DNA of 64,000 nt from a bacterium (GTDB taxonomy: Bacteria > Patescibacteriota > Minisyncoccia > Phycocordibacterales > Phycocordibacteraceae). The notes below the pieces were generated by a model. It saw only the letters and a list, made by a program, of their open reading frames with translations. It made no database searches and was not told the origin of the DNA. The DNA is taken from contig JAKBHL010000011.1 in the NCBI GenBank assembly GCA_021836725.1, forward strand, positions 18,210 to 82,209, written 5' to 3'. Below, piece after piece: positions 3,120-52,893 of the stretch; position 1 is the first letter of the stretch, and each line of letters opens with the position of its first letter. A program made the position numbers and the translations under genes.

Positions 3120-3194
3120 GTCCGCACAATCTACCGCTAACGCGCGTGAACTGCAAGTATGCGCCACCGGGCGCGGGAGTGCTAGGATACGCTT

Positions 3195-9770: not shown

Positions 9771-11441
9771 ATGGATTTGCCATTTGATGCCGAGCGCACG
9801 ACGAGAAAGCTTGCCGAAGTGCGTGAACAGGAAGAAGAGGACCTCACGCGCATCCTCTCGGAAAAGTACGCCATCCCTTACACCGACCTCTCGCTCCACG
9901 CGGTTGACGTCGAGGCGCTCCGCACGATCCCCGAAGAGAAAGCGCGGGCGGCCGAAGCGGCCGCTTTCGCCCGTACCGCAGAGGATCTTTCTCTCGCAGT
10001 CCATAATCCGAATAACCCGGCGCTTGCGGAACTTCGTGCCGAGCTCGCGCAAAACGGCTTCCGGGTTCGGGAATTCTTCGTTTCAAAAAAAGGCCTCGAT
10101 AAGGTGCTATCGCGTTATAGCGAGCTCTCTTTCGCGACAAAATCGAAGACGGGCGTCTTCGTTGTCCCGGAAAACGTATCCGCTGAGTTCGCGAAGGGAT
10201 CAGCGACCCGGGCGTCATTGGACCGGAAACTCACCGAGGCGGCCGCTTCCAAATCGCTTGAGCACGTCTCGAATCTCCTTGAAACCATTTTCGCGGGCGC
10301 GTTTGCGCTTCGCGCTTCTGACATTCATTTCGAGCCGGAAGAAAAAGAGACGCGTTTGCGCTTGCGGATTGACGGGCTTCTTGCCGACGCGCATTCCTTC
10401 GACCCGAATATTTCCCACCAGCTTAATTCGCGCCTGAAGCTTCTTTCGGGCGTGAAGCTCAATGTCACCAATCGGGCGCAAGACGGCCGTTTCAGCGTGT
10501 CGCGTTCGAGCGGCGAATTGGAGATGCGCGCTTCTTTTATTCCGGGCAAATACGGCGAAGCGATTGTGCTGCGCATTCTCGACCCCGAAACGACCAAGGT
10601 TTCCTATAAAGAGCTCGGTATCAACCCGAAGCTGCTCGCGCGCCTCGAAAAAGAGATCCGACGGTCAAACGGGATGCTGCTCACCACCGGCCCGACCGGA
10701 AGCGGTAAGACGACTACGTTGTATTCTTTCCTGCGAGAGATTTACGCGCCGGAAATAAAAATAATCACCATTGAAGATCCTATCGAATATCATCTGCGCG
10801 GTATCGTGCAAACGCAGGTGGAGGATAAGAAATACACTTTCGCCGAAGGGCTTCGCTCCATCGTGCGCCAGGACCCGGATATCATCATGGTCGGCGAGAT
10901 CCGAGACGGCGAGACGGCGAATATCGCCATCCAGGCGGCGCTCACGGGCCACTTCGTCTTCTCCACGCTCCACACCAACGACGCGGCCGGTACGTTCCCG
11001 CGTCTTGCCGATCTGGGCGCCGATCCGAAATCGTTCGGGTCGGCGGTTACCGTTTCGATGGCGCAGCGTCTTCTCCGGAAACTTGATCCCGACACAAAGA
11101 AGGAGAGAGCGCTCACGGACGAAGAGAAGCGGATAATCGCAAAAGTATTCGATTCGCTTGCCGACAAGACGCTTATTCCGGAAAAGATAGAGACGGTGTG
11201 GGAAGCGGCCCCTGCGCATGCCGAAGAGACCGGTTATAAAGGCCGCATCGGTCTCTATGAGGCCATTTTCATGGATGATGAGCTCGCGGAATTCTTGCGC
11301 GACAATCCTCCCGCAAACGAAATTGCGAAAGTCGCTGCAAAAAAGGGGTACCTGACCATGGCGCAAGACGGCATACTGAAAGCTCTCGCGGGCATCACCT
11401 CTCTCTCGGAGGTGGCCGCGACCGTTGATCTGCCGCAATAA
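9771..11441 (+). CDS. GspE/PilB-family secretion/pilus assembly ATPase (standalone copy)
   Basis: Walker A LLTTGPTGSGKTTTLY, Asp box, His box (FSTLHTN), and an N-terminal GspE-N-like domain. Confidence 0.85.
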   Translation: MDLPFDAERTTRKLAEVREQEEEDLTRILSEKYAIPYTDLSLHAVDVEALRTIPEEKARAAEAAAFARTAEDLSLAVHNPNNPALAELRAELAQNGFRVREFFVSKKGLDKVLSRYSELSFATKSKTGVFVVPENVSAEFAKGSATRASLDRKLTEAAASKSLEHVSNLLETIFAGAFALRASDIHFEPEEKETRLRLRIDGLLADAHSFDPNISHQLNSRLKLLSGVKLNVTNRAQDGRFSVSRSSGELEMRASFIPGKYGEAIVLRILDPETTKVSYKELGINPKLLARLEKEIRRSNGMLLTTGPTGSGKTTTLYSFLREIYAPEIKIITIEDPIEYHLRGIVQTQVEDKKYTFAEGLRSIVRQDPDIIMVGEIRDGETANIAIQAALTGHFVFSTLHTNDAAGTFPRLADLGADPKSFGSAVTVSMAQRLLRKLDPDTKKERALTDEEKRIIAKVFDSLADKTLIPEKIETVWEAAPAHAEETGYKGRIGLYEAIFMDDELAEFLRDNPPANEIAKVAAKKGYLTMAQDGILKALAGITSLSEVAATVDLPQ

Positions 11442-16277: not shown

Positions 16278-17378
16278 TTATTGATTCATCGGTGAAATGA
16301 GATAGAGGAGGGAAGGGTCGCCGACTCCTTTTATAATGAGCGGGCGCCCGATACCGGCGGCGGTGAGCGAAAGGCTTTCTGTATTTGTGAGCGCAAGCAC
16401 GGCTGAAAGGTAACGGTGGTTAAAAGAGAGATCGAGAGCGCTTCCGGTTATTTGCGCAGAAAGCGTTTCTGCCGATTCTCCGATATCGGTATTGTGTGCA
16501 AAGAAAGAAAAGTGATTTTTTTTAGGATCGAAATTGATGCGTATTTTTTGGAAAGAATCTGAAAAAATAGCCGTTCTTTTTAGCGCGGTTTCAAAATCCC
16601 TCCTAAGAACCATAGCTTCGACGATGGATTCCTTCGGAATAATCTGCCGGTAATCGGGATAGGCGGCGTTTGTAAGCCGTGAGACAATCATCCCGGCCGC
16701 GCTGGTGAATGCGCATTGATGCTCATCAAACACAATGGTAACGTCGCCATCGGGCAGGGCTTGCGCGATTTCTACGGCATTTTTTGCCGGGATGAGGAGT
16801 TTTCCTTGTATCCCTTTATTGCCGAGTGTTATTTTCTTTTCAGCAAGCCGGAATGAGTCCGTTGCGACCGCTATGAGCATCCCTCCTTCCAGGGAAAGGT
16901 AAATGCTTGAGAGTTCAGGGCGTATGGTTGAGTTTGATGCGCAGGAGGCGATCGAGGTGAAAAGGGTGCGGAGGAGGGTTCCGGAAAGGATTATTTTATT
17001 TTTTTGATTTTCAGGAAATGGGATTGAGGGGAAATCGTCGTGGGGTACTGTTTTTACCGAGCTTTTGCCGGTACCGCTTGCAAGAGAGACGATGTCACCA
17101 GTATGTTCGAGTGTTATTTTCCCTTCCTGAGTGAGTGATCCTGCTATTTGTTGCAGAATAGCCGCCGGAATGGCGACAACCCCCTTGCTTTTACATTCTC
17201 CCTCGAGTGTGAGATCGATGCCGGTCTCGAGATTTGTCGCGCGCATTTTTATTCCATCATCTCCGGCGATGATAAGGATAGAAGAGAGGGCGGGGAGAGA
17301 AGCGCTTTTGCGTTCGGCGAATCGAGCGACTTTATACACTGCCTCAATAAATATCTTTTTTTCTATTGAAATATACAT
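16278..17378 (-). CDS. dnaN: DNA polymerase III beta sliding clamp
   Basis: 366 aa in three clamp-like domains, begins MYISIEKKIFIEAVYKVARFAERK, and sits just downstream of dnaA. Confidence 0.9.
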   Translation of the reverse strand: MYISIEKKIFIEAVYKVARFAERKSASLPALSSILIIAGDDGIKMRATNLETGIDLTLEGECKSKGVVAIPAAILQQIAGSLTQEGKITLEHTGDIVSLASGTGKSSVKTVPHDDFPSIPFPENQKNKIILSGTLLRTLFTSIASCASNSTIRPELSSIYLSLEGGMLIAVATDSFRLAEKKITLGNKGIQGKLLIPAKNAVEIAQALPDGDVTIVFDEHQCAFTSAAGMIVSRLTNAAYPDYRQIIPKESIVEAMVLRRDFETALKRTAIFSDSFQKIRINFDPKKNHFSFFAHNTDIGESAETLSAQITGSALDLSFNHRYLSAVLALTNTESLSLTAAGIGRPLIIKGVGDPSLLYLISPMNQ

Positions 17379-17489
17379 ACGACTTTTATTAAGGCTGTTG
17401 ATAAGGGGATAAACGAAAATCAGAACTCAATGACTCGATATTTTTACAACCACGGAACACATAATGTGTGGATAAAGGGAGTGAAAGGT
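17379..17489. promoter_or_regulatory. putative oriC core (dnaA-dnaN spacer with DnaA boxes)
   Basis: AT-rich spacer containing a perfect DnaA box TTATCCACA (minus strand, 17467-17475) and the near-consensus TTATCAACA (17396-17404). Confidence 0.55.
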
Positions 17490-18845
17490 TCATACAAGAA
17501 GCGTACGGATATTTTGAATCTCTTTTGCGAGCTCACTATCCACAACAACTTCACGTTTTATCTTCTCACAAGAGTGGATAACTGTCGTGTGGTCTCTACC
17601 ACCAAGTTTCACACCGATCGTTGGGTATGAAATACTAAAATCTTCACGAAGAATGTACATAATAACCTGACGCGGCCGCACCACCTCTCTCCGCCGCGTC
17701 TTTTCATAGATGCTTTCCTCATCAATGCCGTAAAATTCAGCAACCTTATCCACCACATTCTTTACGGATATATTCTTCTGCGGCCGCGTAAACGAACGCA
17801 GCGACTGACGCACCTCCGCTATATCAGGCGCAAAACCCTTTACTTGAGCATGGCAGATAATGCTGTTTACCATGCCTTCCAATTCCCGTATGGACCCGCT
17901 CATAGAGGTCGCCACATACTCAACAACCTCATCGGAAAGCATCACCCCATGAGAGGCGGCCTTTTTCCGCACTATGGCCATACGCGACTCCGGATCCGGT
18001 TCCCCGATATCGATGGCCATACCGCTCGCTAAACGGCCCTTCAGCCGCTCCGCGACGTCTGGAATGGCCGCCGGAGCCCGGTCTGAGGAGAAGATAATCT
18101 GCTTGTTTGTATCATGAAGCGCATTGAAAAGGTGGAAAAGCTCCTCCTGTGTCCGGTCTTTTTTTGAAAGAAACTGCACATCATCCATGATAAGTAGATC
18201 GTACTGACGATATTTATCCTTGAAGCGATTCGCGGTGCCTGCCTGAACGGAGTCGGTATAATCAACCGCGAATTTCTCCGAAGTAAGGTAGAACACCTTC
18301 CGACCCGGGTATTGTTTCTTAAAATGGTTCCCGATGGCCTGGATAAGATGTGTTTTTCCGCGCCCCGTGTCGCCATAAATGAAGAGTGGGTTATAAGAGA
18401 TGCCTGGGCGCTGCAAGGTCGCCTGCGCAGCGGCATACGCGAGATTATTGAAAGAACCAATAACAAACGTATCAAACGTGTAACGGGGGTTCAGGTTATC
18501 ACTCTTGTTTATGTAAAACTCATCGAGCGGAAGCTCAAGCGCTCCCCGCACGTTCTTGGCCTCCTTTGAGGGCAGTTTACGGCGTTCATCCTTCACAATG
18601 AGATATTCGATATTGCGGAATTCATAGGACACATCCCGCAGGATCTTCAAAAGAAGCGTATGGAACTTCTTCAGATACCAATCCTTGAAGAATTGGCTCG
18701 GCACGCCGATGTACACCACCCCATCCTCGCCTATTTTCACGATAAAACTGTTCCGGAACCACGTATTGAAATTCGCGGGCGATATCGAAAGCTCAACTTG
18801 CGTGAGCACGTATTCCCACAACTCCTTCGGGTTCCCTTTGTCCAT
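17490..18845 (-). CDS. dnaA: chromosomal replication initiator DnaA
   Basis: GDTGRGKTHLIQAIGN Walker A, IDDVQFL, C-terminal DNA-binding domain. Start at MDKGNPKELWEYV... (ATG complement of 18843-18845). Confidence 0.95.
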   Translation of the reverse strand: MDKGNPKELWEYVLTQVELSISPANFNTWFRNSFIVKIGEDGVVYIGVPSQFFKDWYLKKFHTLLLKILRDVSYEFRNIEYLIVKDERRKLPSKEAKNVRGALELPLDEFYINKSDNLNPRYTFDTFVIGSFNNLAYAAAQATLQRPGISYNPLFIYGDTGRGKTHLIQAIGNHFKKQYPGRKVFYLTSEKFAVDYTDSVQAGTANRFKDKYRQYDLLIMDDVQFLSKKDRTQEELFHLFNALHDTNKQIIFSSDRAPAAIPDVAERLKGRLASGMAIDIGEPDPESRMAIVRKKAASHGVMLSDEVVEYVATSMSGSIRELEGMVNSIICHAQVKGFAPDIAEVRQSLRSFTRPQKNISVKNVVDKVAEFYGIDEESIYEKTRRREVVRPRQVIMYILREDFSISYPTIGVKLGGRDHTTVIHSCEKIKREVVVDSELAKEIQNIRTLLV

Positions 18846-18937
18846 GATACCCAAGAGTATACGCTTTTGGAGGCGGAGCGGCACACTGGTGTTTCGGGGA
18901 GAACCTGTTACTATCATGTGCATAACCAAATTTCGAC

Positions 18938-19082: not shown

Positions 19083-19394
19083 GTGTTTCCGCGCAAAGAA
19101 CGGCTTGCGCGCGACGCGTTTCCCGCGCTGCTTTCAGGCGGAAAAAGGTTCTCGTCGGCGAACTTCACCGCGCTCGCTTCAAGCGAAGGAAAGGGATACG
19201 CAGTCGTCGTATCGAAAAAGGTTGCGCGGCTCTCGGTCACGCGACACCGCATAAAACGCCGCGTTCTTGAAGCGCTGCGCACCCTCCCCCTCCCCCGATC
19301 CCTGGTCCTTTTCCCAAAATCCGCAACAAATTCTATGAGTTTTCAAGATATCCAAAAAGAGCTGTCCGGTCTCCTTTCAAAAATCCGCCACTAA
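19083..19394 (+). CDS. rnpA: RNase P protein component
   Basis: 103-aa basic protein after rpmH with ...VVVSKKVARLSVTRHRIKRRVLEAL. Confidence 0.8.
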   Translation: MFPRKERLARDAFPALLSGGKRFSSANFTALASSEGKGYAVVVSKKVARLSVTRHRIKRRVLEALRTLPLPRSLVLFPKSATNSMSFQDIQKELSGLLSKIRH

Positions 19395-19408: not shown

Positions 19409-20173
19409 GTGATATCGACTTTCTTCCACGCGGTTTTCTACAATCCGATTTACAACGCGCTCGTCGCGCTCGTCGCGCTCGTTCCCGGGTCGAATGTGGG
19501 TGTCGCGGTCATTCTCATCACGATCGTTATCCGGCTCGTGCTCCTTCCCTTCTCGCTTTCGGCAGCCCGCACTCAGCGGGCAATGAAGTTTTTGGAGCCG
19601 AAAATAAAAGATCTGAAAGAGAAGCATAAGGGCGACAAAGAAAAAGAAGCGCTCGAAACCCTCGCGCTCTATCGCGAAGCGCGCGTGAATCCTTTCGCAA
19701 GCATCCTGACGGTCTTTATACAGATCCCCGTTCTCCTCGCGCTCTACTGGGTGTTCCTTTACGAACCGTTTTCAACGATCGATACCGCACGGCTCTACGC
19801 ATTCACCCCCATTCCGCACGCCGTTTCGCTCGAGTTCCTCGGACTCGCTTCGATCGCCGGCAAAAGCATAGTTCTCGCGGCGCTCGCGGGCTTCACCCAG
19901 TTTCTTCAGGCGCATATGGCTCTCTCGGGCACGATGAAACCCTCAGCAACCGGCGGCATGCAGGGGGATTTCCAAAAGGTAATGGGCATGCAGCTCAAGT
20001 ACGTCTTCCCGTTCCTTATCGCAACTATTTCCTACACCACCTCCGCCGCCATCGCCCTTTACTTCATCACGACGAACCTCGCCGGATCATTGCAGGAATG
20101 GCATGTCCGCCGAAAAATCCACGCGGAGTTCGGGCCGCAAAATCCGATTCCCGAAACAGTCTCCGCGGCGTAA
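19409..20173 (+). CDS. yidC: membrane protein insertase YidC (short form)
   Basis: 254-aa polytopic protein with ...IRLVLLPFSL...KFLEPKIKDLKEKHKGDKEK...LYREARVNPFAS (YidC/Oxa1 core). GTG start. Confidence 0.85.
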   Translation: MISTFFHAVFYNPIYNALVALVALVPGSNVGVAVILITIVIRLVLLPFSLSAARTQRAMKFLEPKIKDLKEKHKGDKEKEALETLALYREARVNPFASILTVFIQIPVLLALYWVFLYEPFSTIDTARLYAFTPIPHAVSLEFLGLASIAGKSIVLAALAGFTQFLQAHMALSGTMKPSATGGMQGDFQKVMGMQLKYVFPFLIATISYTTSAAIALYFITTNLAGSLQEWHVRRKIHAEFGPQNPIPETVSAA

Positions 20174-21388
20174 TCAGAGCTTATACGACCACAACGACCC
20201 GTCGTTTTTGTTTATAAAAGCGAGAACGGTGCCGGAAGGATCGATCGCGAGCGCTTCAGCGTCAAGCGGGCTACTCGTCTCTTTCGAGAAATCGAGCACA
20301 AGCTGCGCAAAGCGGCCCGCAACATCTATCTTCCAGATGCGATCGGAGAAGTGCACCGCGCCCTGGTACCAGTCGTCGGGGTATGCGTAATTTTTAGGCG
20401 GGTTCATGGGGATACCGCAATACACTGCGGAATTGTCAGCCGCCCACACGCACTTGTCCGCGATGGTCGCTACGGGGAGCGGCACCACTGCGCCCGTTGC
20501 CACGTTCACAAGCTCCATCTGCATGCCTTGCGGGAGCGTATAGCTTACCAACACCCACTTCCCGGACGGGCTTGCGAGGGCGACAAGGCCGTTCAAGGGC
20601 CCCGCGATGCGCGAAAAGCGTCCGGCGCTATCAACGATGAACGCATCGCCCGGAAGCGTTGCCGAAGGTTTTGTGAACGCAAGATACTGATTCTTCCCCG
20701 CAAAGGAGACGCGGAGCGAGGAGAGCGGCGTGGTGAATATCTCCGAGGAGTGCGTGCCGTCCGTGCGCATGAGCGAGGCGGATGAACCGTTCACTCCGGA
20801 GGCGAGTGCGAGCACGCTTGTCGAGGAAACGGCCAGGTCGGAAAGGTTTTGCGGCAGGAAGAAGCCGTTTCCGTCGTTTGCCGAGAGCGCGTAGGTATTG
20901 ATGGTAGAAAAGTCAGCGCCCGAAAGATAACGCACGAAAGCTAAAGAAGCATTCGGAAGCCACGAGGCCTCCTCGATGCCCGGGAGAGTTTTGTTTGAGG
21001 TGCGGGTGAGCACGCCCGTGCCGATTTGATATGAAAATACATTGCCGCTTTGCCGCTCGATATACGTAACTACGGTATCCGGAGAAGAACTCGCGTTTTT
21101 CGCAGAAATATCCACGACGGCCTCTCCTGGTACGACCGGGCCGGCGCTTATCTTCACTAGCCGCGCAGAAACCACGGTAGGCACGGGCGCACTGGAGGCT
21201 GAGGAAGTCGGTGTTTGACTGGTAGATGTCGGCACCGCTCCCTGCCCTGCCGTGGGCAGATTCGCACTTCCGCTCGGCGCCACTGTCACGCCCGGGGCGT
21301 TTGCGAAGAAATAAAAATACGCGACCACCCCCGCCCCGAGGGCGACTATCACAAGCGCGGCGATGATGAGGTAGCGGCGCATACTCAT
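20174..21388 (-). CDS. membrane-anchored hypothetical protein (possible periplasmic beta-propeller)
   Basis: N-terminal TM (RRYLIIAALVIVALGAGVVAYFYFF), a Ser/Thr-rich linker, and a C-terminal region ending ...DGSLWSYKL. The start could also be 21382. Confidence 0.55.
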   Translation of the reverse strand: MSMRRYLIIAALVIVALGAGVVAYFYFFANAPGVTVAPSGSANLPTAGQGAVPTSTSQTPTSSASSAPVPTVVSARLVKISAGPVVPGEAVVDISAKNASSSPDTVVTYIERQSGNVFSYQIGTGVLTRTSNKTLPGIEEASWLPNASLAFVRYLSGADFSTINTYALSANDGNGFFLPQNLSDLAVSSTSVLALASGVNGSSASLMRTDGTHSSEIFTTPLSSLRVSFAGKNQYLAFTKPSATLPGDAFIVDSAGRFSRIAGPLNGLVALASPSGKWVLVSYTLPQGMQMELVNVATGAVVPLPVATIADKCVWAADNSAVYCGIPMNPPKNYAYPDDWYQGAVHFSDRIWKIDVAGRFAQLVLDFSKETSSPLDAEALAIDPSGTVLAFINKNDGSLWSYKL

Positions 21389-22353
21389 TGGAATGGCGTC
21401 CAACTTGGATTGTCGGCACATTTAGTATCCAAATTACCGTACCAAGAGACGTCTTCGCACGTTAATTTTTCAGGATAACATTTCCAAGATGTTCCATACG
21501 AGGGATCATTTTTTGTCAACTGACAAGGAACTGAAGAATAGGTTATGTGTAGACCAGAAGTCGGGTCATCACTCACGCAAGTTTTGAATCCAACATTTGC
21601 AGCATGGCATATGTTTGCGAAAGCCATAGCGTCAGCTCCATTGTTCGGTCTTGAAGGATAGTGAACCAAGGGCTGTAATATGTTGATTGTGAGTGAAAAG
21701 AAGCTCTGGTCGTATATGAATACATACCCTTGTTTCCCGGTACAAGTTGCCACATATGTCGGTACTCCGTTCGAAGAATTAGTTATGGAAGTGACAGACA
21801 GGTTTCCATCGGTACAATTCTGCTGACCCCATGTTGTGGCCTGATTATTGGTAAAACACTTTGCTATTTGGAGAATGCCGGGCGTACCGTTCACTGAACA
21901 TTGAGACGGTGTTGGACTGGTAGGTCCCGACCCGCTCCCGCCTCCTGCCGGAGCTGTCAGGTTGACCGGCGACATGCCGATGGAGAGGTTCAGGATGCTC
22001 GGATTGATGATGGAGAAAACGAGCACGGGCAACAAGACAAGAACAAGACCGAAAATAGCGTTATATATCCTCCCTTTGCTGTCCAAAATCTTGCTGACAT
22101 TGTCTTTATTCGTCGCTATCTCAAGACCGCCCCAAATGATCATGATGACCGCGAGAACCGCGGCGGCTCCGATGAGGAACTTGTAGAGATTGTTGAGAAA
22201 AGAGGCAATGCCGCCCGAGGTCGCTTGAACGCCCTGAGTGAGGCCGGGGATGCCCGCGAGCGGAACAAATCCCTGATTATTAGTCTGGGCTAGGGCATGA
22301 GGCACAAATGCGAGAAACGCAAAGAAAATCGACATGATCAGTATTTTTTTCAT
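21385..22353 (-). CDS. T4SS-pilin-like (TrbC/VirB2-type) protein fused to a Cys-rich secreted domain; low-GC gene
   Basis: Signal peptide MKKILIMSIFFAFLAFVPHALA, then ...FLNNLYKFLIGAAAVLAVIMIIWGGLEIATN...FGLVLVLLPVLVFSIINPSIL (two TM hairpin typical of conjugative pilins), then a ~200-aa domain with 12 Cys. GC is about 42% against ~60% flanking. Confidence 0.6.
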   Translation of the reverse strand: MKKILIMSIFFAFLAFVPHALAQTNNQGFVPLAGIPGLTQGVQATSGGIASFLNNLYKFLIGAAAVLAVIMIIWGGLEIATNKDNVSKILDSKGRIYNAIFGLVLVLLPVLVFSIINPSILNLSIGMSPVNLTAPAGGGSGSGPTSPTPSQCSVNGTPGILQIAKCFTNNQATTWGQQNCTDGNLSVTSITNSSNGVPTYVATCTGKQGYVFIYDQSFFSLTINILQPLVHYPSRPNNGADAMAFANICHAANVGFKTCVSDDPTSGLHITYSSVPCQLTKNDPSYGTSWKCYPEKLTCEDVSWYGNLDTKCADNPSWTPFQ

Positions 22354-23354
22354 AGGCCGAAGAGATTACCGCCCGTCTGCGCTCCGAAAGAGAGCGAAAG
22401 ATTCGCCGTCGCCTTGATGAAGTCGCCGGAAGAGGCGACGAGCGAGAGCGACGCGCTCCCTCCCCCGCTTCCGGTCGGACGCAGTGTGATGGAGTTCCCC
22501 GTCTGCGCCGCGGCGCCGTTCAAGAACCACTCCAGGGCAGGCGCCGCGGCGCTGGTCGGGAAAGAAAACGGCGCCGCGTAGAGCGAAGCTTCCGTTCCCG
22601 TGATCGCATAACTGTCGGCAAGAGCGTGATCATACAGGATGCCGAGCAAGGGATCATTTTTATAGATGCGCACCACCGGCTCTTCGGCGGTGAGTGAGGA
22701 CGATGCGCCGCCCGTGATGCTACCGCTTGGGTTTTCGACCGCTACCGAGACCGTACTTTCACGGTACTGTAGCGGCGAGGCGACGATGATCGCGTCCTTG
22801 CCGATGCCCGAAGCGCTTGCGATTTGCGTGCCATTGACCGTCCAGGTGTATGAAAGCGTTCCGGGATCGAGCGTTCGTCCGTTTCCGTCCCGCAGATTCG
22901 CTACAGCGACCATTCGCGTACTCCCTTCGAGCGGTACAAGCGGTTTACCGGCGTAAAGCGGCGGGGCCGAGGAGACCGGTTCAGCGATGAGGCTGACATC
23001 CTGGGGACGGATCGAAAGCGTCTGGCTGTATTGTGTTCCGTTTATGGAAATAACCACTTTTACGTTCATGAGAACTCCCGCTCCGCCGAGCGTCACGGCG
23101 ACCGGCTGCACGTTGCCGCGGTACACCTGTGTGCCGCCGGCAAAGACGGCCATCGTCGCGCCGGAAAGATCGAGCGACGAGGAAAGCTCGGACACCGTAA
23201 CTTGGCTATAGGGCGCCGGATACTGCGGACTCACCGATAGCGTAAAGGATTGAGAGGTATTGATATTGAAGGATTGTGCGCTTGCCGCAAAAGGCGCGGA
23301 AAAAGCCAGTATGACAAGAGCACCGAGAAGCGGTCGCAAAGAGTGCGCGGGCAT
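22350..23354 (-). CDS. secreted hypothetical protein (T4SS-module associated)
   Basis: 334-aa ORF with signal peptide MPAHSLRPLLGALVILAFSAPFAASA and a Ser/Thr/Gly-rich body. Confidence 0.55.
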   Translation of the reverse strand: MPAHSLRPLLGALVILAFSAPFAASAQSFNINTSQSFTLSVSPQYPAPYSQVTVSELSSSLDLSGATMAVFAGGTQVYRGNVQPVAVTLGGAGVLMNVKVVISINGTQYSQTLSIRPQDVSLIAEPVSSAPPLYAGKPLVPLEGSTRMVAVANLRDGNGRTLDPGTLSYTWTVNGTQIASASGIGKDAIIVASPLQYRESTVSVAVENPSGSITGGASSSLTAEEPVVRIYKNDPLLGILYDHALADSYAITGTEASLYAAPFSFPTSAAAPALEWFLNGAAAQTGNSITLRPTGSGGGSASLSLVASSGDFIKATANLSLSFGAQTGGNLFGL

Positions 23355-23383: not shown

Positions 23384-24025
23384 TTATGCCGCTTCGCGAG
23401 TGTCGGCGGGGATTTCCTCGCCGCCATAATCCTCGTCATTTGCGGCCTGCTCTTCCTCCGCCGCGCGCATTTGCATGACTTGCATGACCTGCCGCGCCTG
23501 TATTTCCCGTTCTTGCTCTCGCACGGCAGCCTGTTCTTTTTCATACTGTTTCAGAGCCTTCCTTTCTTTCTTTATCTGAGCGTGATACATCTTCCAGGTT
23601 GTAGCGGTCAATACTGGCACCGTACCCACAAGCGGCACCTCGCTTACGCCGAGACTGAACAGCATCCACAGCGCGTTACCCGCATTCTCCTTGAATATGC
23701 GCGCATCGGTGATCACCAGCATGAGTCCGACCGTCATCCATCCGAGGAATCCGACCGCCATGGCCATGACGATCCCGAGCACTTCAATCGCACCGGCGCC
23801 GAAAATACCCGCCGCGCCGCCCACGACCGTCCCCGCGACATGCCCAGCAGTCCCGCCGCCCACAAGCGCGCTTGTCCCGACGCCGATAAAAAGCGGCGCG
23901 AAAAGCCAGAATTGTTCGAACATGAAACGCAGCGCGTCGAAGATGAGACAGACGACGAGGACCGGCACCGCTTTCGCCCAGGTCATCGTCTTGGGCGGCT
24001 GATTACTGTTTCTGCGCGAGGGCAT
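23384..24025 (-). CDS. polytopic membrane protein (VirB6/TrbL-like candidate)
   Basis: 4-5 TM helices, Gly-rich (GGTAGHVAGTVVGGAAGIFGAGAIEVLG), and a charged C-terminal tail. It lies immediately downstream of the VirB4-like ATPase. The start may be at M14 (MTWAKAV). Confidence 0.5.
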   Translation of the reverse strand: MPSRRNSNQPPKTMTWAKAVPVLVVCLIFDALRFMFEQFWLFAPLFIGVGTSALVGGGTAGHVAGTVVGGAAGIFGAGAIEVLGIVMAMAVGFLGWMTVGLMLVITDARIFKENAGNALWMLFSLGVSEVPLVGTVPVLTATTWKMYHAQIKKERKALKQYEKEQAAVREQEREIQARQVMQVMQMRAAEEEQAANDEDYGGEEIPADTREAA

Positions 24026-25823
24026 GGCGTTCCTTCTCCTCTTTCATCGCAAGAAGCTGCGAAGGATCGGACGTGATGATCTGGTCTTCGGTGTAGCTTG
24101 CGACGACTTTTATGGCAACATGCTTCAATCCCGCGAAAAAGAGGCCCTCGCCCACCCCGGCCTCGAGAAGAAGATATTTTTCCTCATCGGTCAGATTGAA
24201 CGTCTCCTGGAGCACCCCGATCGTCGTTGGCGATTGTTTCAACAGCAATTGCAGGGAAGAGTTGGTGAGAATCGGCCTGCCGTACGGGCTCTTGAGGAAG
24301 TCCTCCACATCCTGCGTTATGGTGCAGACGCCAAGGTAATACTTGCGTCCGCGTTTGGCGACGGAATATAGGAAGGAGGCGGTATCTTCGCTCTTCATCA
24401 TCCACCATGCCTCATCAATTACCAGGAGGCGTTTCTTGAGTTCGTGACGCACCGCGTTCCAGATGTAGTGCGTGATGATATACATAGCCGCAGGCTTGAG
24501 CTCGTCCTCCATATCGCGCACCGAAAAGACCGCGAACTGCTGGTTGATATCGATATTGGTCGGCTGGTTGAGGAATCCGGACCACGTGCCACGCGTGTAT
24601 TTTGAAAGCCGCTCCACCAAGGATTCGCTTCCCTCCATGCCGGAGAGCACTTGTTCGAAATCGGACAGAAGCGGCGGCTCGGCGCCGGTGAAATCCGCAT
24701 CGCCTGTGATGTCTTTGAGCGCATACGTCTCGCTGATGGCACGGTCGACGATAGCATCTTCCTCCGGCGACAATCCCGAGAGCATGATGCGGAAAAGTCC
24801 GACGAGCGCGATGATGTTGGAGCGCAGGATGTCTTTTGGGTCCTCGTCTTCTTTGACGGGCGGGAGGTCGAAAGGATTGATATGGTGTTCCGAAGAAAGC
24901 GAGATGTGGAAGGAGCGGCCGCCGGTCGCCTCGGCAAGCTGCTCGTACTCGTGCTCGGGGTCGATGACGATGACGTCGGTGCCGAACATGAGGGAACGGA
25001 GTATCTCGAGCTTCGTCGCGTAGCTCTTCCCGCTTCCGGACTTCGCGAAGATGACCGAATTGTAGTTCTCAAGCGAGAAGCGATCGAAGAGGATGAGCGA
25101 AGAATTGTGCCGGTTGATGCCGTAGAGGATGCCGCGGTCGCTCGTGAGGTCGAAGGAGATGAATGGGAAGATCGAGGAAAGCGGCGAGGAGTTCAGCTTT
25201 GAATTGACGAGGAGCTCGTCGCTGCCGAGCGGCAGGCAGGAACGGAACCCTTGCTCCTGCTGGAAGAGCGCGGGTTTGGTGTAGACAAGCTTCGCATCAA
25301 GAATGCCGCGGATATCGCCCTCGGTCTTATTAATCTCTTCCTTGGAGTCACCATAGAGCGCAAGGTACAGGCCGACATCGAAAAGCTTTTCCTGCGCCTG
25401 CTGGAGGTTGTCGCGCAGATTTTCAAGATCCTGGTATGCGGTATCGAGCAAGGGGTCGCGCACAAGCCCCCTCGCTTCGCGCTCGCTTATCTGGCTTTGC
25501 ACCTCGGCGACTTTTTTCTGGAATCCGCGGAGCGCCTGCGCCGTCTCTATCGGGTGGATGAATATCGATACGTCAAGCACCTTGTCGAGATTGATGACCG
25601 GCGAGAACCAGCTGTCGGAAAGAAACCGCGGGTAGGAGACGGTATAAAAAGCGCGGACGAATTTTTCTCCGAGCTCAAGCTCGCGCGAACCGATCTTGAG
25701 CGCGGTCGGGGCGATGGTGTCGATGAGATTCAAAGAACCTTGCCGGTAAATGTCTCTCGGCAAGACCGGGACTATGGCCGGCGCCTCCTCTTTTTTACGG
25801 TTTAGGAAGTTGAGAAGTGACAT
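24003..25823 (-). CDS. VirB4/TrbE-family type IV secretion ATPase (core and C-terminal part)
   Basis: Walker A FAKSGSGKSYATK, Walker B LLVIDEAWWMMK, plus DUF87-like features, 606 aa. Confidence 0.8.
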   Translation of the reverse strand: MSLLNFLNRKKEEAPAIVPVLPRDIYRQGSLNLIDTIAPTALKIGSRELELGEKFVRAFYTVSYPRFLSDSWFSPVINLDKVLDVSIFIHPIETAQALRGFQKKVAEVQSQISEREARGLVRDPLLDTAYQDLENLRDNLQQAQEKLFDVGLYLALYGDSKEEINKTEGDIRGILDAKLVYTKPALFQQEQGFRSCLPLGSDELLVNSKLNSSPLSSIFPFISFDLTSDRGILYGINRHNSSLILFDRFSLENYNSVIFAKSGSGKSYATKLEILRSLMFGTDVIVIDPEHEYEQLAEATGGRSFHISLSSEHHINPFDLPPVKEDEDPKDILRSNIIALVGLFRIMLSGLSPEEDAIVDRAISETYALKDITGDADFTGAEPPLLSDFEQVLSGMEGSESLVERLSKYTRGTWSGFLNQPTNIDINQQFAVFSVRDMEDELKPAAMYIITHYIWNAVRHELKKRLLVIDEAWWMMKSEDTASFLYSVAKRGRKYYLGVCTITQDVEDFLKSPYGRPILTNSSLQLLLKQSPTTIGVLQETFNLTDEEKYLLLEAGVGEGLFFAGLKHVAIKVVASYTEDQIITSDPSQLLAMKEEKERHALAQKQ

Positions 25824-25825: not shown

Positions 25826-26461
25826 CTAATTGTCGAGACGGATAGGATTCTCGAGTTCTCCCGGATTGAACGAACGATACAAGAGCTCGATGATCTCTTC
25901 GGTACCAAGCGAAACCGCTCGCACACCCGTGCCGGAGAGCCCGCTCGCGACAAGCGCAAGCCGCTGCTCCAGTTGCGCGCGATCCTCTTCGAAAGAAGTT
26001 TCGGCAACGCCGTCTTTCGCGCCCGCGCCGCTGCGCCGCAAAAAACCGACGGCACCCGTCGTAGAAACGTGCGGCGCATACGACACGACGACATAGAACG
26101 ATTTCGTCATGATATTCGCCTGATCGGCGAACGAGCGGACAAACTCGATGTACTCATGCAGCTGAATGCGCAAAAGCTCGGTTTTCTGTTCCGGCATCTT
26201 ATCGGCGAGCAGTGCGAGGTAGGGCCGCAAGTCCATTTTGCGCGAATTCACTACGATTTGAATCGAGAAATCGAGCATGTTGAGGAAATTTTGGAAACCG
26301 AGAGTGATCGCGTGCTGTTCATCTGCTGACTTCAGTCCGAAATTTATCGACGAGCAGATGAGTATGCCGCGATAGCTGCCGTCCTTGAGGACAATGACGC
26401 CGTTCCGAATTTCTTTGATCGGGACGAATTGCTGTGTTGCACCCGGGGCGGAGGTTGCCAT
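25826..26461 (-). CDS. VirB4 N-terminal-domain-like protein (VirB4 split into two ORFs)
   Basis: 211-aa ORF ending 3 nt upstream of the ATPase ORF. Its N-terminus ...FVPIKEIRNGVIVLKDGSYRGILICSSINFGLKSADEQ resembles the N-terminal domain of Gram-positive VirB4 homologs. The two ORFs total ~817 aa, the size of a full VirB4. Confidence 0.5.
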   Translation of the reverse strand: MATSAPGATQQFVPIKEIRNGVIVLKDGSYRGILICSSINFGLKSADEQHAITLGFQNFLNMLDFSIQIVVNSRKMDLRPYLALLADKMPEQKTELLRIQLHEYIEFVRSFADQANIMTKSFYVVVSYAPHVSTTGAVGFLRRSGAGAKDGVAETSFEEDRAQLEQRLALVASGLSGTGVRAVSLGTEEIIELLYRSFNPGELENPIRLDN

Positions 26462-26463: not shown

Positions 26464-26910
26464 CTAGGATTCTACACTGCGACGGCTGCCGTCCATAGAT
26501 TTTACATCAAGCGACCATGCGAGCTCCGAGAGTTTCCCTCGCGTGAGTTTCGGCGTGCCGCGCGGCGTGCGCGCCTGCGCATCGGCCGCCGCGGCCGCCG
26601 CGGCCGCGGCGTTTTTCTCCGCCGCTTTCGGTTCGGCGTGTTTCCAGAGAAAGAGTTTGCCGCTTGTGTAGTAATTGAATCCGGCTTCAAGCACTTCAAT
26701 GAAGGGTTTCCCGTTCATTTTATAGAAAGAGAGCGCCACCGCGAGCGCCACCACCGGCGCCGAAAAGAGAAGCGCGAGCACTATCGGCAGATAAACGAAG
26801 AGGACAATGCATATGCCGCCCGCGCCGGCGACATATATGAACTGTTTCAGGGTCAAGGGCCCGATTATCTTGTCCTCGACATCGATAAATTGCGGCACTT
26901 GATATTCCAT
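26464..26910 (-). CDS. PrgI/VirB3-like small two-TM protein
   Basis: MEYQVPQFIDVEDKIIGPLTLKQFIYVAGAGGICIVLFVYLPIVLALLFSAPVVALAVAL..., directly upstream of the VirB4 ORFs, which is the PrgI-family pattern. Start chosen at ATG 26910. Confidence 0.55.
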   Translation of the reverse strand: MEYQVPQFIDVEDKIIGPLTLKQFIYVAGAGGICIVLFVYLPIVLALLFSAPVVALAVALSFYKMNGKPFIEVLEAGFNYYTSGKLFLWKHAEPKAAEKNAAAAAAAAADAQARTPRGTPKLTRGKLSELAWSLDVKSMDGSRRSVES

Positions 26911-26999
26911 CCCGTACAGTATAGCAGTTGCCGCCGCGGCATACTGTCGAGTATAGCCGCCGCGGCATATCGCCGGGCGCACGTTCAATCCTCGCCGCG

Positions 27000-28328
27000 T
27001 CAATCCCGGGAATTCTTCCGGAGCACCTGTTCCGGCGACGCGCCCCGCGGATATTCTATGAGCGTATCGGCGCCCGACTCCCAGGATTTCCGAACCGCAT
27101 CAACGATGCGCCACGATTCGAGCACTTCCCCGCTTGAGGCGAAGAGCGTATGGTCGCCGCACAAAGCATCGAGAAGGACGCGCCCATACGCGTCCGGAAG
27201 CGCGTCGAAATGATCCGCGTAGGTAAATGCGAGCGGTACGCGCTCGATCGTGCGGTCATAGCCCGGACGTTTGGCAAAAAAACAAAGCTCGACGCCTTCG
27301 TTTGGCTGGAGCCTGAGCGTAAGCCGGTTTTGCTGCGGAGCGCCGTCGCGGCGATAGGTGACGACGATATCCGTTCTCTTTTCCGACAAGGCCTTGCCGG
27401 TGGTAAGGGTGATCGGCACGTCCTGCCAGCGCGGGTCCGAGGAAAAAAGAGTGAGCGAGACGAACGTCTCGACTAGGGAAGCCGGGTTGGCGACTTCGGT
27501 GCGGTAATCCTCATACTGTCCGCGCCCCACACTTCCGGGGTCTACCCTGAGCGTTTCGAGGAGCGCGCGGCGCGCTTCCGGGATGCGTCCGAGTTCCCTG
27601 TCCGGCGGCAGGGTCATAAGCGTAAGCGCCGCAAGCTGCAACAGATGGCTCTGCACCAGATCGCGCAGAGCGCCGGTTTGTTCGTAAAAAGCGGCGCGAC
27701 CCTCGATGCCGATCGTTTCGCTCGCGAGAATATCGATGCGTTCGATGGCATCCCGATTCCATGTCCGTTCAAAAAGCGGATTATCTTGGCGGAAGACGAC
27801 GATATTCTGAACCGTTTCCTTGGCGAGATAGTGATCAATGCGATACACCTGCTCTGCCGCAAACGAACGTTCGACATGCGCGACAAGCTCCTCGGCGCTT
27901 ACGCGGTCGATCCCGAATGGTTTTTCAAGGAGCAGCTTTGTGTTTGGCAGACGCGCGAGCCCCGAGTTTCCGAGTCGTTCGATGATAGGCCACGCGGTTG
28001 TCGGCGGGACCGCGAGATACCACAGGCATTGCGCGGCGTCATCCCACAGCTGAGCAATCGTGCGCAGATGCGCCCCCAAACGCTCATAGTCCGCGGCGTC
28101 TTCAAGCGACATCGGAAATACTTCAAGGTGCTCCCGTATATACCCGGCAGCGCGGACTCCCTCGAGAATGTTCGACGGAGTGACCGCGCGTTGCCGCGTG
28201 ATCCCAACGATGCGGAATCGTTTGGGTAAAACGCCGGCAGCGGCCATGTCGCCGATGGCAGGCAGTAATTTGCGTCTTGAAAGATCGCCCGTTACGCCGA
28301 TAATGATGAGGATAGTCGGCGTGTCCAC
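27000..28328 (-). CDS. zwf: glucose-6-phosphate 1-dehydrogenase
   Basis: ...ILIIIGVTGDLSRRKLLPAI...EKPFG...RIDHYLAKE... The start is uncertain. GTG at 28328 avoids overlapping the upstream small gene, while the track ATG is at 28424. Confidence 0.85.
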   Translation of the reverse strand: MDTPTILIIIGVTGDLSRRKLLPAIGDMAAAGVLPKRFRIVGITRQRAVTPSNILEGVRAAGYIREHLEVFPMSLEDAADYERLGAHLRTIAQLWDDAAQCLWYLAVPPTTAWPIIERLGNSGLARLPNTKLLLEKPFGIDRVSAEELVAHVERSFAAEQVYRIDHYLAKETVQNIVVFRQDNPLFERTWNRDAIERIDILASETIGIEGRAAFYEQTGALRDLVQSHLLQLAALTLMTLPPDRELGRIPEARRALLETLRVDPGSVGRGQYEDYRTEVANPASLVETFVSLTLFSSDPRWQDVPITLTTGKALSEKRTDIVVTYRRDGAPQQNRLTLRLQPNEGVELCFFAKRPGYDRTIERVPLAFTYADHFDALPDAYGRVLLDALCGDHTLFASSGEVLESWRIVDAVRKSWESGADTLIEYPRGASPEQVLRKNSRD

Positions 28329-36844: not shown

Positions 36845-38260
36845 TCACATCTGTTTCCAGTCCACAAACTGCCATTGCGTCGAGGTCGTGGGCGTGAAAG
36901 GCGGCGGGTTAGTCGAATTCTGCCTGTCGAACACCGACGTGCCGCCCGAATAGCCGGATATTCCGTTGGCGCACGAGCCACCCACGAGCCACGCGGTAAC
37001 AGGACGCAGCGTCGAAACGACGGTACCGAATTGGTTGAGATCCGATCGAGAGGCATACGGACTGCTGCAAGAATAAAAATTGCGCCCAAATACGCCTGAT
37101 TGCGCGACAAAGATACCGTCCATAGTGAGATTTGTAGGCGTGTTCGGACCGATGAGGAGATCGTGTGACGCGATAGCAGTGAGGCCGGCGGAACCGTCGA
37201 AAGCGGTATAGGTGATGTTGTTCGGCACCACGATGTTTGGATAGACGCCTTGATCGGTGACGTCGGCGGCGACTACCGTCACTTTCGAGGAAATAGATCC
37301 CTCAATCCAGGCATTGTCCTCGATAAAGATGACTCCGCACTGCGAAGGGATCGTGTAGGTACCAAGCGTTGTTTCGCTTGAAATGAGCGAGTAGTCGTTT
37401 ACAAACCAATTTGCGGAGCCATCAGCCGGATAGGAATACAGATTCTGATCCACCGCAGTCACCTGCTTCACGGTTACGGTGCCATCGCCGTTGAAAATGA
37501 GGTGATAACCAAGATTTGGATTGTTGTTCGTTGAAACGCGCGGGAAATAGAGGCCGGAAGTCTGGGCTATCGTTTTTAGAGAGGAGAAACTTGAAGCGAT
37601 AGCAGCGAAATCGACTTGCGGCGTCGGATAATTCCAGAAATCCTGGTTCGTTCCGTTGCCGAAAACGCCCGGAACGGTCTGACCGGGATTACAGCCGAAA
37701 GAATAGTCGCAGTACCATGAGGAGAGCGACGAAGTGACAGGAGCGTTGGGAGATCCGTCCATGCGAAGACCGCCATTGCTGTGCACCGGTCCGTAAATCG
37801 GTCCGGCCCCGAACCACGTGCTCGCATTGAGAACCATATTGTAACGGGCGACGGAAGGTTCCGCGTAGCGCGCCCAGAGCGTCGTTGAGACGCCGGGCGC
37901 ATCGCTCGGCACGCCGGTACTCGTGACGTCAATCGACTGCACAACGTTGCAGGCGACATTGCCCGTTATGGAGAGCGAGTACGTTCCCGCCGTGCCGCCC
38001 TGCGGGTCGGCATACGAAGTCACGTATGGGCCGGCGTGGCCGGTACCGTCCTGCGTATTACCGGGGAAATGCGAAAGGAACCAGCGATAGTATTCGAGGC
38101 CGGCGTCGGCGATGCTGAAGCCCTCCGCGCGCGCGCGGGTAATATCCTGCGCGTGATTTTGAGCCAGAACGAAGCCGGAAAGCGCGGCGAGCACCGTAAA
38201 AAATATGCCGCCGAAAATGAGCACGAGGAGAACGATTGAACCGCGCAGTCGATTTTTCAT
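36845..38260 (-). CDS. pilus-associated large secreted/anchored protein
   Basis: N-terminal TM (SIVLLVLIFGGIFFTVLAALSGFVLA), 471 aa, first gene of the pilus operon. The body is rich in N/T/S/G repeats. Confidence 0.55.
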   Translation of the reverse strand: MKNRLRGSIVLLVLIFGGIFFTVLAALSGFVLAQNHAQDITRARAEGFSIADAGLEYYRWFLSHFPGNTQDGTGHAGPYVTSYADPQGGTAGTYSLSITGNVACNVVQSIDVTSTGVPSDAPGVSTTLWARYAEPSVARYNMVLNASTWFGAGPIYGPVHSNGGLRMDGSPNAPVTSSLSSWYCDYSFGCNPGQTVPGVFGNGTNQDFWNYPTPQVDFAAIASSFSSLKTIAQTSGLYFPRVSTNNNPNLGYHLIFNGDGTVTVKQVTAVDQNLYSYPADGSANWFVNDYSLISSETTLGTYTIPSQCGVIFIEDNAWIEGSISSKVTVVAADVTDQGVYPNIVVPNNITYTAFDGSAGLTAIASHDLLIGPNTPTNLTMDGIFVAQSGVFGRNFYSCSSPYASRSDLNQFGTVVSTLRPVTAWLVGGSCANGISGYSGGTSVFDRQNSTNPPPFTPTTSTQWQFVDWKQM

Positions 38261-38850
38261 AATTGGTTCTTGAGATTACGCAGCGTCGCGGCTCCGGAGA
38301 GTGTGAAGGCGACCGGTGCCCGGTTCACGTTCACGTCGACGACGACCGTCGTCTCAACCGATGCTATCTTCGAGATATTTATCGGTGCGGTGAGCTCGGC
38401 CCCGGTATCGTCGAAGTAGCGGAAGACGGGCGTTGCGGCGTCGTTGACGACCGAGGTCGCTATGGTCGTCGTCGCCGAAGGCGTGCCGGCGTACGAGGGC
38501 GGATTCCCCGCTGAGGATTGGACCACCCGGTACAACGTACCTTGCTGGAGCGTGTAGGTCACGCGTGCGATGGAAGGACTTGCACCATTTATGTTTGCGT
38601 AGAAGGTAATGGATGAAGTCGCGACACTCTCGATAGGGTACGATCCATCGTCCCCATAGGACGCCTCGCGCAGATATTTCATTGCATCCTCGACGCCGAG
38701 CCGCGCCTGTCCTACGGCGATGGATTGTTGAAGCGTATAGGCGTTTGTTTTGTAGAAATAAGCGAGGAGCGTGCCAAGCGTGACCATGATAAGCGCTGTC
38801 ATTGCTATGACGACTATGGTTTCTATCAAAGTGAAGCCGCGGTAGATCAT
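38257..38850 (-). CDS. type IV pilin-like protein (major pilin candidate)
   Basis: Prepilin class III leader MIYRGFTLIETIVVIAMTALIMV (G|FTLIE motif). Confidence 0.75.
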   Translation of the reverse strand: MIYRGFTLIETIVVIAMTALIMVTLGTLLAYFYKTNAYTLQQSIAVGQARLGVEDAMKYLREASYGDDGSYPIESVATSSITFYANINGASPSIARVTYTLQQGTLYRVVQSSAGNPPSYAGTPSATTTIATSVVNDAATPVFRYFDDTGAELTAPINISKIASVETTVVVDVNVNRAPVAFTLSGAATLRNLKNQL

Positions 38851-41761: not shown

Positions 41762-41762
41762 G

Positions 41763-51784: not shown

Positions 51785-51936
51785 GACCTTTAGAAATACG
51801 GCTCATTTCCTAAGTATACTCTAGGGTCAATCATTTTTGTCATTACAGACAGGTGTCCTTTATCCCCATTGTGCACAGGTTTGTACACAGTTCAAAAATC
51901 GTTTTGTAATCACTATTTATTCGTCTTTTCCCTCGG

Positions 51937-52007: not shown

Positions 52008-52013
52008 AGGCTG

Positions 52014-52745: not shown

Positions 52746-52767
52746 TCAAGGCAGCGGAAAACTTTTG

Positions 52768-52839: not shown

Positions 52840-52893
52840 GTGCGTTTATAGTACGGCACAAATACTAAAAAACCAGACATATCGTGGTACGAT

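Follow-up and report, generated by a model that had tools for sequence, protein, structure and literature searches.

A candidate VirB2-like pilin carrying an exchangeable, disulfide-rich head in a type IV secretion operon of Patescibacteria

The window analysed here is a 64,000-nucleotide stretch of contig JAKBHL010000011.1 (assembly GCA_021836725.1) from a bacterium assigned to the Patescibacteriota. It contains a type IV secretion system (T4SS) operon in which one gene, at 21385..22353 on the minus strand, encodes a pilin-like protein that ends in a long Cys-rich domain, referred to below as the head. Comparison with related loci supports repeated recombinational replacement of the linker and head alone, while the pilin core is retained. 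We lean towards the reading that the protein is a VirB2-like subunit displaying an exchangeable, five-disulfide binding head on a flexible tether, and it is plausible that the head is the candidate built-in module for host recognition.

A sequence-only reading of this DNA had proposed that the gene encodes a composite pilin. This view is upheld by the present analysis, since the N-terminus matches the Pfam family PF18895 above cut-off, the gene lies in an operon with VirB4 and PrgI, and the Cys-rich domain is predicted to fold separately. The signal peptide and two-helix hairpin that had been assigned to the N-terminus are also recovered, as aa 1-22 and as helices at aa 46-81 and 86-116, whereas the head contains 10 Cys residues instead of the 12 that were claimed. 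A single open reading frame (ORF) with an ATG start covers the 322 codons, and its parts can be listed as follows; GC3 denotes the G+C content (GC) at third codon positions, pLDDT the predicted local distance difference test score, AF2 an AlphaFold2 model and TM a transmembrane segment.

21385..22353, minus strand: pilin gene, 322 aa plus stop, composed of VirB2-like core, linker and Cys-rich head; called from the ORF, the PF18895 match above cut-off and full-length homologs.
22288..22353, minus strand: putative Sec-type signal peptide, aa 1-22 (MKKILIMSIFFAFLAFVPHALA, with Q as the next residue), recognised by its hydrophobic N-terminus and A-L-A motif.
22219..22287, minus strand: mature N-terminal segment, aa 23-45, uncharged, with the conserved motif GFVPLAxIPGLT.
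22111..22218, minus strand: helix 1 (TM1), aa 46-81, a helix in the AF2 model; the PF18895 match spans aa 46-109.
22069..22110, minus strand: basic inter-helix loop, aa 82-95, predicted to be cytoplasmic (4 K/R versus 2 D/E in aa 79-96).
21982..22068, minus strand: helix 2 (TM2) with the junction motif IINPSILNLS, aa 96-124, the most conserved segment.
21901..21981, minus strand: flexible G/S/P/T-rich linker, aa 125-151, with pLDDT <50 for aa 125-149.
21388..21900, minus strand: Cys-rich head, aa 152-322, 18.6 kDa, predicted alpha/beta fold, ending in PSWTPFQ, with low GC3.

Cleavage of the signal peptide after aa 22 is suggested by the sequence itself. The resulting mature protein would comprise 300 aa (31.7 kDa) and begin with a segment devoid of charge, as K, R, D and E are absent across aa 23-57. 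In an alignment of 50 homologs, F29, I35, L38 and T39 of this region are invariant. Kyte-Doolittle analysis gives hydrophobic stretches at aa 52-82 and 94-126, and the AF2 model shows two long helices, at aa 46-81 and 86-116. Following the positive-inside rule and the analogy to VirB2/TraA pilins, the basic loop would be located inside, facing the lumen if a filament is formed, with the N-terminus and the head outside. Helix 2 and the junction (aa 96-124) have a mean column entropy of 0.34 bits, the lowest among all segments of the protein, and I116, N117, P118, I120, L121, N122, L123 and S124 are invariant in the same alignment. The linker has the highest entropy (2.08 bits), is the largest site of insertions and deletions, and has a GC of 65%. 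Linker and head together add 198 residues after helix 2, and the 10 Cys residues (152, 166, 180, 204, 249, 259, 277, 292, 299 and 312) are all located within the C-terminal 171 residues.

The N-terminal core (aa 46-109) scores 31.8 bits against PF18895 (T4SS_pilin), above the gathering cut-off of 26.6, so that the comparison with T4SS pilin profiles demanded by the sequence-only reading comes out in its favour. The TrbC/VirB2 model PF04956 gives 25.1 bits (E = 2.1e-5), just below its cut-off of 27.9. Among 55 proteins carrying the head domain, PF18895 is matched by 43 and TrbC, at E < 1e-3, by 16. As judged from these profiles, the kinship of the protein to the TrbC/VirB2 pilin family is at the level of the clan only. 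The features of a VirB2-type pilin are present, namely a leader, two hydrophobic helices and a basic connecting loop; the 300-aa mature protein is nevertheless not the classical small, hairpin-only subunit of roughly 70-120 aa. A tblastn search of the pilin on 72,556 plasmids yielded no BLAST-level relative, and phages likewise gave no match. NCBIfam holds no model for the pilin, nor for the 334-aa, 404-aa and 213-aa proteins encoded in the same operon.

The full-length search returned 503 homologs, and hence the fusion is not unique but the architecture of a widespread family. Among the 120 matches listed, dozens cover 100% of the query in one frame, at 40-55% identity and with lengths of 300-350 aa. 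These one-frame homologs identify the ORF as a single gene and dispose of the possibility, raised with the composite-pilin proposal, that a frameshift had joined two genes. In the 50-sequence alignment the head has nine invariant Cys residues and a tenth whose conservation is 90% or more. G156, F212 and F245 are the further invariant positions of the head, and no catalytic-type invariant residue is found in it. An AF2 model of the head alone, built with 32 homologs, reaches a pLDDT of 86.8 and a predicted template-modelling score (pTM) of 0.84, and in this model the Cys-rich C-terminal domain is a separately folding unit. An exhaustive hidden Markov model search with the head alone against 1.84 billion representatives retrieved only 67 proteins; the head forms the C-terminal part of proteins of ~215-550 aa, save for a few fragment-like entries of 105-171 aa. 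A word-indexed search with the head alone found 1 protein, which reflects a prefilter limit, as the full-length and profile searches showed. No Pfam or NCBIfam family covers aa 125-322, and hence no toxin or enzyme domain is recognised there.

Relatives of the protein combine a near-identical core and junction motif with Cys-rich tails that are unrelated to each other. The tails of 78 species-level loci, retrieved by core motifs in a scan seeded with the full-length alignment, form about 20 clusters that contain Cys and have no relation to one another; the head type of the window is the commonest, being present in 40 of the 78. The number of Cys residues is even in 77 of these loci and in 145 of 148 database proteins, which fits complete disulfide pairing outside the cell. 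One alternative module, that of the locus L012 described below, was again found only on a protein annotated as pilin. Some relatives are more elaborate: ahead of the pilin core, P0156 has Ig-like repeats and both P0157 and P0028 have Cys-rich segments, and P0028 and P0047 have two tandem Cys-rich modules after it. Cargo seems to be tolerated at either end of the core, both of which would face outward.

Core and head do not follow the same history. Across 50 type-A proteins, the identities of core and head are nearly uncorrelated (r = 0.22); where two cores share at least 95% identity, their heads may share anything from 44% to 100%, and two pairs with heads 86-88% identical have cores of only 73%. 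Between closely related genomes the divergence is concentrated in one tract.

21000..22250, minus strand: recombination hot-spot tract, which extends from the 3' part of the core through linker and head into the downstream gene, of which it includes the first ~130 codons.

The window and the locus L008 share 100% nucleotide identity from 24200 to ~22250 and from ~21000 to 19300, but inside the tract the identity drops to 90-95% in the 3' half of the core, 45-66% in the linker and head, and 70-87% in the first ~400 nt of the downstream gene. The two heads are consequently only 47% identical in amino acids despite flanks that are 100% identical. L094 and L091 have the same background with differing internal breakpoints, i.e. 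they are mosaic, and L091 encodes exactly the head of the window but is unlike the window in the opening 180 nt of the pilin gene and at the 5' end of the gene downstream. In L012, which belongs to a sister population (~90% nucleotide identity), homology to the window ends at 21931, within the linker, and restarts at 21384, at the stop codon; the interval is occupied by a non-homologous 12-Cys module. The metagenome-assembled genome (MAG) BP9.bin55 contains two pilin alleles, one with a window-like head (L009, contig JAJYCP010000003.1) and one with the non-homologous module (L012, contig JAJYCP010000006.1). The L009 contig ends within the pilin gene and the L012 contig ~120 nt past it, and the locus appears to break assemblies through strain heterogeneity. 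Three independent contigs, drawn from two assemblies or more, carry exactly the allele of the window. Its 99% variant is found in a further three samples, and two different alleles occur together in one sample.

The 404-aa protein encoded downstream is 92-93% identical in amino acids to its close relatives, and only its first ~130 codons vary. This part encodes the TM segment and an S/T/P-rich linker, which are hypervariable (63-95% nucleotide identity between otherwise identical strains), the rest of the gene being 100% identical; it belongs to the same recombination tract as the pilin head. The divergent tracts are internal to contigs of at least 33 kb and bounded by identical sequence on both sides, implying that they are alternative haplotypes and not mis-joins. 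A search of the 64-kb window with the core, the head and five alternative modules found neither silent cassettes nor paralogs, and a mechanism like that of Neisseria pilS is unsupported within the window as no donor cassettes are present there. The ratio of non-synonymous to synonymous substitutions (dN/dS) among four close alleles is 0.02-0.11 for the core, 0.08-0.27 for the head scaffold and 0.13-0.66 for the head loops. Values below 1 in both scaffold and loops imply that the head is functional and that its loops are free to vary. The diversity of the head is mainly due to replacement and relaxed loops rather than to detectable point-wise positive selection.

The genetic context is that of a T4SS. 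Seven genes, several of them overlapping, follow one another on the same strand, with the pilin gene in sixth place; the other six members and the genes beyond them are the following.

26464..27003, minus strand: PrgI (VirB3-like) membrane protein, PF12666 at 38.7 bits (cut-off 27), orthologs of 143-148 aa.
25826..26461, minus strand: TrsD/TraC-like protein, a split VirB4 N-terminal domain, with weak NCBIfam matches; orthologs carry PF26593 (TraC-like).
24003..25823, minus strand: VirB4-type T4SS ATPase of 606 aa, Gram-positive CD1110 type, NCBIfam NF045971 at 373 bits (cut-off 325).
23384..24025, minus strand: polytopic membrane protein of 213 aa with no significant family; position kept in all loci.
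22350..23354, minus strand: upstream secreted protein of 334 aa with a signal-like N-terminus and a weak BiPBP_C match only; position kept in all loci.
20174..21388, minus strand: downstream protein of 404 aa with a TM anchor, an S/T/P-rich linker and a beta-rich domain, without family or PDB match.
19409-20173: yidC, beyond the gene for the 404-aa protein.
19083-19394: rnpA-like ORF.
17490-18929: dnaA.
16278-17378: dnaN.

The true start of PrgI is probably ~30 codons downstream of the listed TTG. The TrsD-like NCBIfam match of the second gene (E = 4.5e-4) is below the cut-off score, and VirB4 N-terminal regions are also matched weakly; the VirB4 ORF itself scores 88 bits against Pfam P-loop_TraG. 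Counted from the pilin gene, VirB4 is located ~1.7 kb and PrgI ~4.1 kb upstream, on the same strand and in coupled genes. The stop of the 334-aa gene overlaps the pilin start by 4 nt, and the start of the 404-aa gene overlaps the pilin stop (ATGA, 4 nt), a call that was made independently in L089 and L001. Neither of these two flanking proteins has relatives in the PDB. The gene order is identical in six loci of other assemblies, with VirB4 identity as low as 91%. A scan of the operon detected fewer promoter-like sites than in shuffled sequences and no convincing terminator between the genes, which is consistent with one operon. Among ~50 window ORFs that were scanned there is no relaxase and no VirD4 coupling protein family, and the window as a whole holds one pilin-core gene only. 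Where the homologs have source labels, these read Kaiserbacteria, Paceibacterota, Parcubacteria or Minisyncoccota. The system is the chromosomal, origin-proximal, monoderm-type T4SS of Patescibacteria that was described by Quinonero-Coronel et al. 2025 (PMC12102498).

The base composition of the gene had been read as a sharp drop to ~42% GC and as a sign of recent horizontal acquisition or of strong compositional constraint. The low value is correct for the C-terminal domain (codons 151-322: GC 43.2%, GC3 0.40), whereas the whole gene has 47.5%, against 56.4% for the window, and its core is ordinary (codons 1-120: GC3 0.62; adjacent genes: GC 55-60%, GC3 0.66-0.74). Only 3.6% of the 969-nt windows in the 64 kb are as poor in GC as the pilin gene, and the window has only one locus lower in GC than the 400-nt stretch at 21401. 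Windowed GC and codon usage, the check suggested by the sequence-only reading, confirm the C-terminal dip. When the expected GC3 is calculated from the codon usage of 13 neighbouring genes as a control for amino acids, the head has 0.386 observed versus 0.640 expected (z = -6.8) and the N-terminal part has z = -0.2; under this control, amino-acid composition does not explain the low GC. In 70 of 73 loci the GC3 of the module is likewise lower than that of the core (means 0.41 and 0.62; Wilcoxon p = 2.5e-13) at flanking GC of 46-64%, and module GC3 correlates with flanking GC (r = 0.71). Since the dip is general to the modules, a recent acquisition of this gene in this genome is ruled out, and the presence of the syntenic locus in every relative examined and the native codons of the core also speak against that claim. 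The low GC3 fits a composition set by a shared and often exchanged pool of alleles; it also fits very divergent alleles that escape the forces keeping genome GC3 high, or selection acting on how a secreted domain rich in disulfides is translated. In the downstream gene, the hypervariable 5' part has a mild dip only (GC3 0.60 versus 0.71).

In the mechanism that we propose for this ultrasmall, Kaiserbacteria-like bacterium, the protein would be inserted by Sec/YidC and its signal peptide removed. It would then form a two-helix hairpin in the membrane, with the basic loop inside and the mature N-terminus and C-terminal part outside, where the ~27-residue flexible linker tethers the 18.6-kDa alpha/beta head held by five disulfides. 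The VirB4 machine could extract and polymerise the subunits as in other VirB2-type pili, so that each subunit would place a head on the filament surface, and the head may serve as the built-in binding (adhesin) module of the T4SS for the host cell. We infer binding by the head from its position, disulfides and variability, and polymerisation, surface display and a link to host range are put forward in a similarly conditional sense. Since only one pilin-core gene is present in the window, polymerisation would put a head on every subunit and not on the tip alone; the earlier wording, an adhesin-tipped pilin, was probably mis-stated. A rough surface-area argument based on the dimensions of the F-type pilus suggests that there is room, at a larger radius, for an 18.6-kDa head tethered by 27 residues. 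The linker and head would behave as a cassette, for which the conserved core, on one side, and the gene end with the downstream gene, on the other, may provide recombination arms. We propose that these conserved arms on both sides allow strains to replace the head with diverged or unrelated modules.

Several points weigh against a head-bearing pilus subunit. To our knowledge, no filament has been shown for this clade, and we know of no characterised VirB2/TraA pilin that approaches the size of the ~31.7-kDa mature subunit. Foldseek with the full model against the PDB gave no significant match between the N-terminal hairpin and solved pilins, and the full-length alignment, searched as a sequence profile against the PDB, retrieved no pilin and no other meaningful match. 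The head has no fold match in the PDB or in the viral BFVD, no PDB profile match and no detectable similarity to known adhesins. Positive selection was undetected, as pairwise dN/dS never exceeds 1 (maximum 0.66, in the loops), and an oxidoreductase of the DsbA, VKOR or thioredoxin type was not seen among the ~50 window ORFs scanned. The linkage of the alleles to distant flanks rests on metagenome assemblies, in which chimerism could affect long-range linkage, though it cannot produce divergent tracts enclosed by identical sequence. Moreover, T4SSs of the Gram-positive type, to which the CD1110-type VirB4 points here, generally have no pili (PMC12102498, PMC10633639).

The last of these points, together with the unusually large size of the subunit and the missing structural match to solved pilins, would suit a membrane-anchored surface protein that is not a filament subunit. 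Its hairpin would be an anchor or a site of docking to the T4SS, and its head a receptor, an adhesin or a phage shield. We consider this unlikely, because helix 2 and the junction are conserved (0.34 bits; dN/dS 0.02-0.11) beyond the need of a passive anchor, and such extreme conservation of helix 2 fits tight subunit-subunit or subunit-machine packing. The gene is also translationally coupled within the T4SS operon in all loci, and in the single T4SS of Patescibacteria in which this was tested, the pilin genes proved essential (PMC10633639). A broader proposal, in our judgement distinctly unlikely, regards the core and the invariant INPSILNLS junction as a general presentation or delivery platform for shuffled, polymorphic, disulfide-rich modules (~20 or more types). 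The pilin locus would then set which hosts are attached or manipulated, with some modules perhaps released as effectors, and the system would be the T4SS counterpart of receptor-binding-protein swapping in phages or of CdiA-CT/Rhs-CT polymorphism. Related to this is the idea of a polymorphic effector or processed pro-protein, whose Cys-rich module would be detached by cleavage and then act, after release or delivery, as an effector, toxin or signal. The conserved N-terminus, the invariant demarcation motif and the many unrelated C-terminal modules agree with it, as do the cassette-like replacement and the lower GC of the modules, which are generally hallmarks of polymorphic toxins. CdiA and Rhs toxins have such a design of conserved N-terminus and variable C-terminus, and the C-terminal processing of RP4 TrbC is a precedent for the trimming of a T4SS pilin. 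An effector of this kind is nonetheless improbable, for Pfam and NCBIfam recognise no toxin or enzyme family in the head, invariant catalytic-type residues are absent, and no small immunity gene co-varies with the modules; the gene downstream encodes the conserved 404-aa ortholog, of which only the linker region is variable. Heavy disulfide bonding would also suit an extracellular scaffold better than the crossing of a target membrane.

Two further explanations concern the origin of the gene and of the data. Recent horizontal acquisition of the whole gene from a low-GC donor would account for a gene GC of 47.5% against 56% for the window, but it is very improbable given that the GC3 of the core half is native (0.62-0.64; z = -0.2), that relatives with VirB4 as low as 91% identical have the identical gene order, and that the dip affects the head alone and is seen again in 70 of 73 homologous loci. 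An artefact, either frameshift-joined genes or chimeric assembly behind the allele swaps, comes to mind since all sequences are from metagenome assemblies and the BP9.bin55 contigs end inside the gene (L009) or ~120 nt after it (L012). We find it scarcely credible: the one-frame architecture is present in dozens of independent proteins among the matches listed, the exact allele recurs in three independent contigs and its 99% variant in three more samples, and the divergent tracts are internal to contigs of at least 33 kb with identical flanks on both sides. We retain, as the favoured reading, a VirB2-like subunit with an exchangeable binding head.

Other features of the window deserve a brief record. 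A separate type IV pilus (T4P) cluster at 36845-43604 (minus strand) contains a PilB-like ATPase (41763-43604), a PilC/T2SSF protein (40547-41761) and an N_methyl pseudopilin (38257-38850), in addition to a 567-aa protein with CarboxypepD_reg repeats and a 471-aa protein without family; a second T2SSE ATPase is encoded at 9771-11441. With the T4P cluster and the T4SS operon both in the window, the organism has both surface machines. In terms of composition, dnaN (16278-17378) has an unusually low GC3 of 0.48, and the lowest-GC spot of the window (17100-17400, 0.395), which adjoins dnaA, is probably the neighbourhood of the replication origin. A second low-GC island at 51837-54363 (GC3 0.43-0.47 versus ~0.66) encodes a 243-aa protein with a faint HTH match (52014-52745) and a CCA-adding/PolyA_pol+HD enzyme (52894-54363), and a XerC/D-type integrase (55626-56543) lies near it. 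The ~50 ORFs scanned include a single recognised cell-wall hydrolase, an M23+LysM peptidase at 60835-61752. The UvrD-type helicase ORF at 62116-64000 runs off the end of the window and has an Intein_splicing match of 33.7 bits, just under the cut-off of 35.8. The ORF for ribosomal protein S20 (2853-3596) has 247 aa with the S20 domain at aa 163-239 only, so that either the protein has a long N-terminal extension or the ORF was called too long. A small ORF at 293-568 matches DUF5652 (86 bits), a family that we take to be largely restricted to Patescibacteria, which would agree with the taxonomy derived from the homolog labels.

Few systems have been shown to be indispensable to Patescibacteria living as epibionts, and the T4SS is one of them; T4SS pilin genes and other parts of the system are essential for the epibiotic growth of a Saccharibacterium (Wang et al. 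2023, PMC10633639). As the element of recognition still missing from the large Kaiserbacteria/Paceibacteria branch, a head-bearing pilin is a concrete candidate. If the favoured reading is true, the known designs of VirB2-type pilins would come to include, besides minimal hairpins, subunits of four times that size. The exchange of cassettes between strains that are otherwise clonal marks the locus as being under strong diversifying pressure in nature, and the locus can be used as a strain-tracking marker in metagenomes. The GC3 deficit that is specific to the modules, across genomes of 46-64% GC, shows a composition decoupled from the host genome within one gene.

The T4SS and its VirB2-like pilins are already known. 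As in the published systems of Patescibacteria (PMC12102498, PMC10633639), a monoderm-type VirB4, PrgI/VirB3, TrsD and a PF18895/PF04956 pilin near virB4 are present, and the locus is situated beside dnaA/dnaN/rnpA/rpmH with no relaxase or coupling protein nearby. The published work treats VirB2 as a small protein; the variation that it reports takes the form of gene arrays, each with 2-11 small and divergent pilins, found chiefly in Saccharimonadia and Microgenomatia. Its survey of 3,035 genomes detected no adhesin in these systems (PMC12102498). The present locus differs in that there is one pilin gene and the variation is located in an exchangeable, fused Cys-rich head. In the searchable literature we found no description of the fusion to a large disulfide-rich head, of the repertoire of unrelated heads, of the cassette replacement or of the module-specific GC3 deficit. 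The protein shares with the conjugative pilins TrbC, VirB2 and TraA the leader, predicted to be cleaved, the two hydrophobic helices with a basic loop and the placement of the gene in a VirB4 operon. Mature conjugative pilins of the classical type have, however, a size of about 7-8 kDa, compared with ~31.7 kDa here, and the 198-residue C-terminal extension makes head-to-tail cyclisation of the VirB2/TrbC kind unlikely unless the head is removed.

The general design has parallels outside the VirB2 family. CdiA-CT and Rhs-CT polymorphic toxins are alike in having a conserved N-terminal part, a junction motif and many C-terminal modules of lower GC that undergo recombinational replacement; they differ in their toxin domains and cognate immunity genes, neither of which is found here, where the modules are Cys-rich and of an extracellular type. 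The type IV pilins PilA and PilE consist of a conserved hydrophobic polymerisation module and a variable, disulfide-bonded, exposed C-terminal part diversified by recombination. The likeness lies in this combination of a conserved module with a variable outer part of disulfide type exchanged by recombination, whereas the machinery is another one and the family is unrelated; the protein described here has no PF07963 match and no class III signal or N-methylation motif. In flagellin, the conserved part builds the filament core and a variable surface domain is swapped between strains. Its fold and secretion route are unrelated to those considered here, and in the pilin of this locus the variable domain is terminal, flexibly tethered and rich in disulfides.

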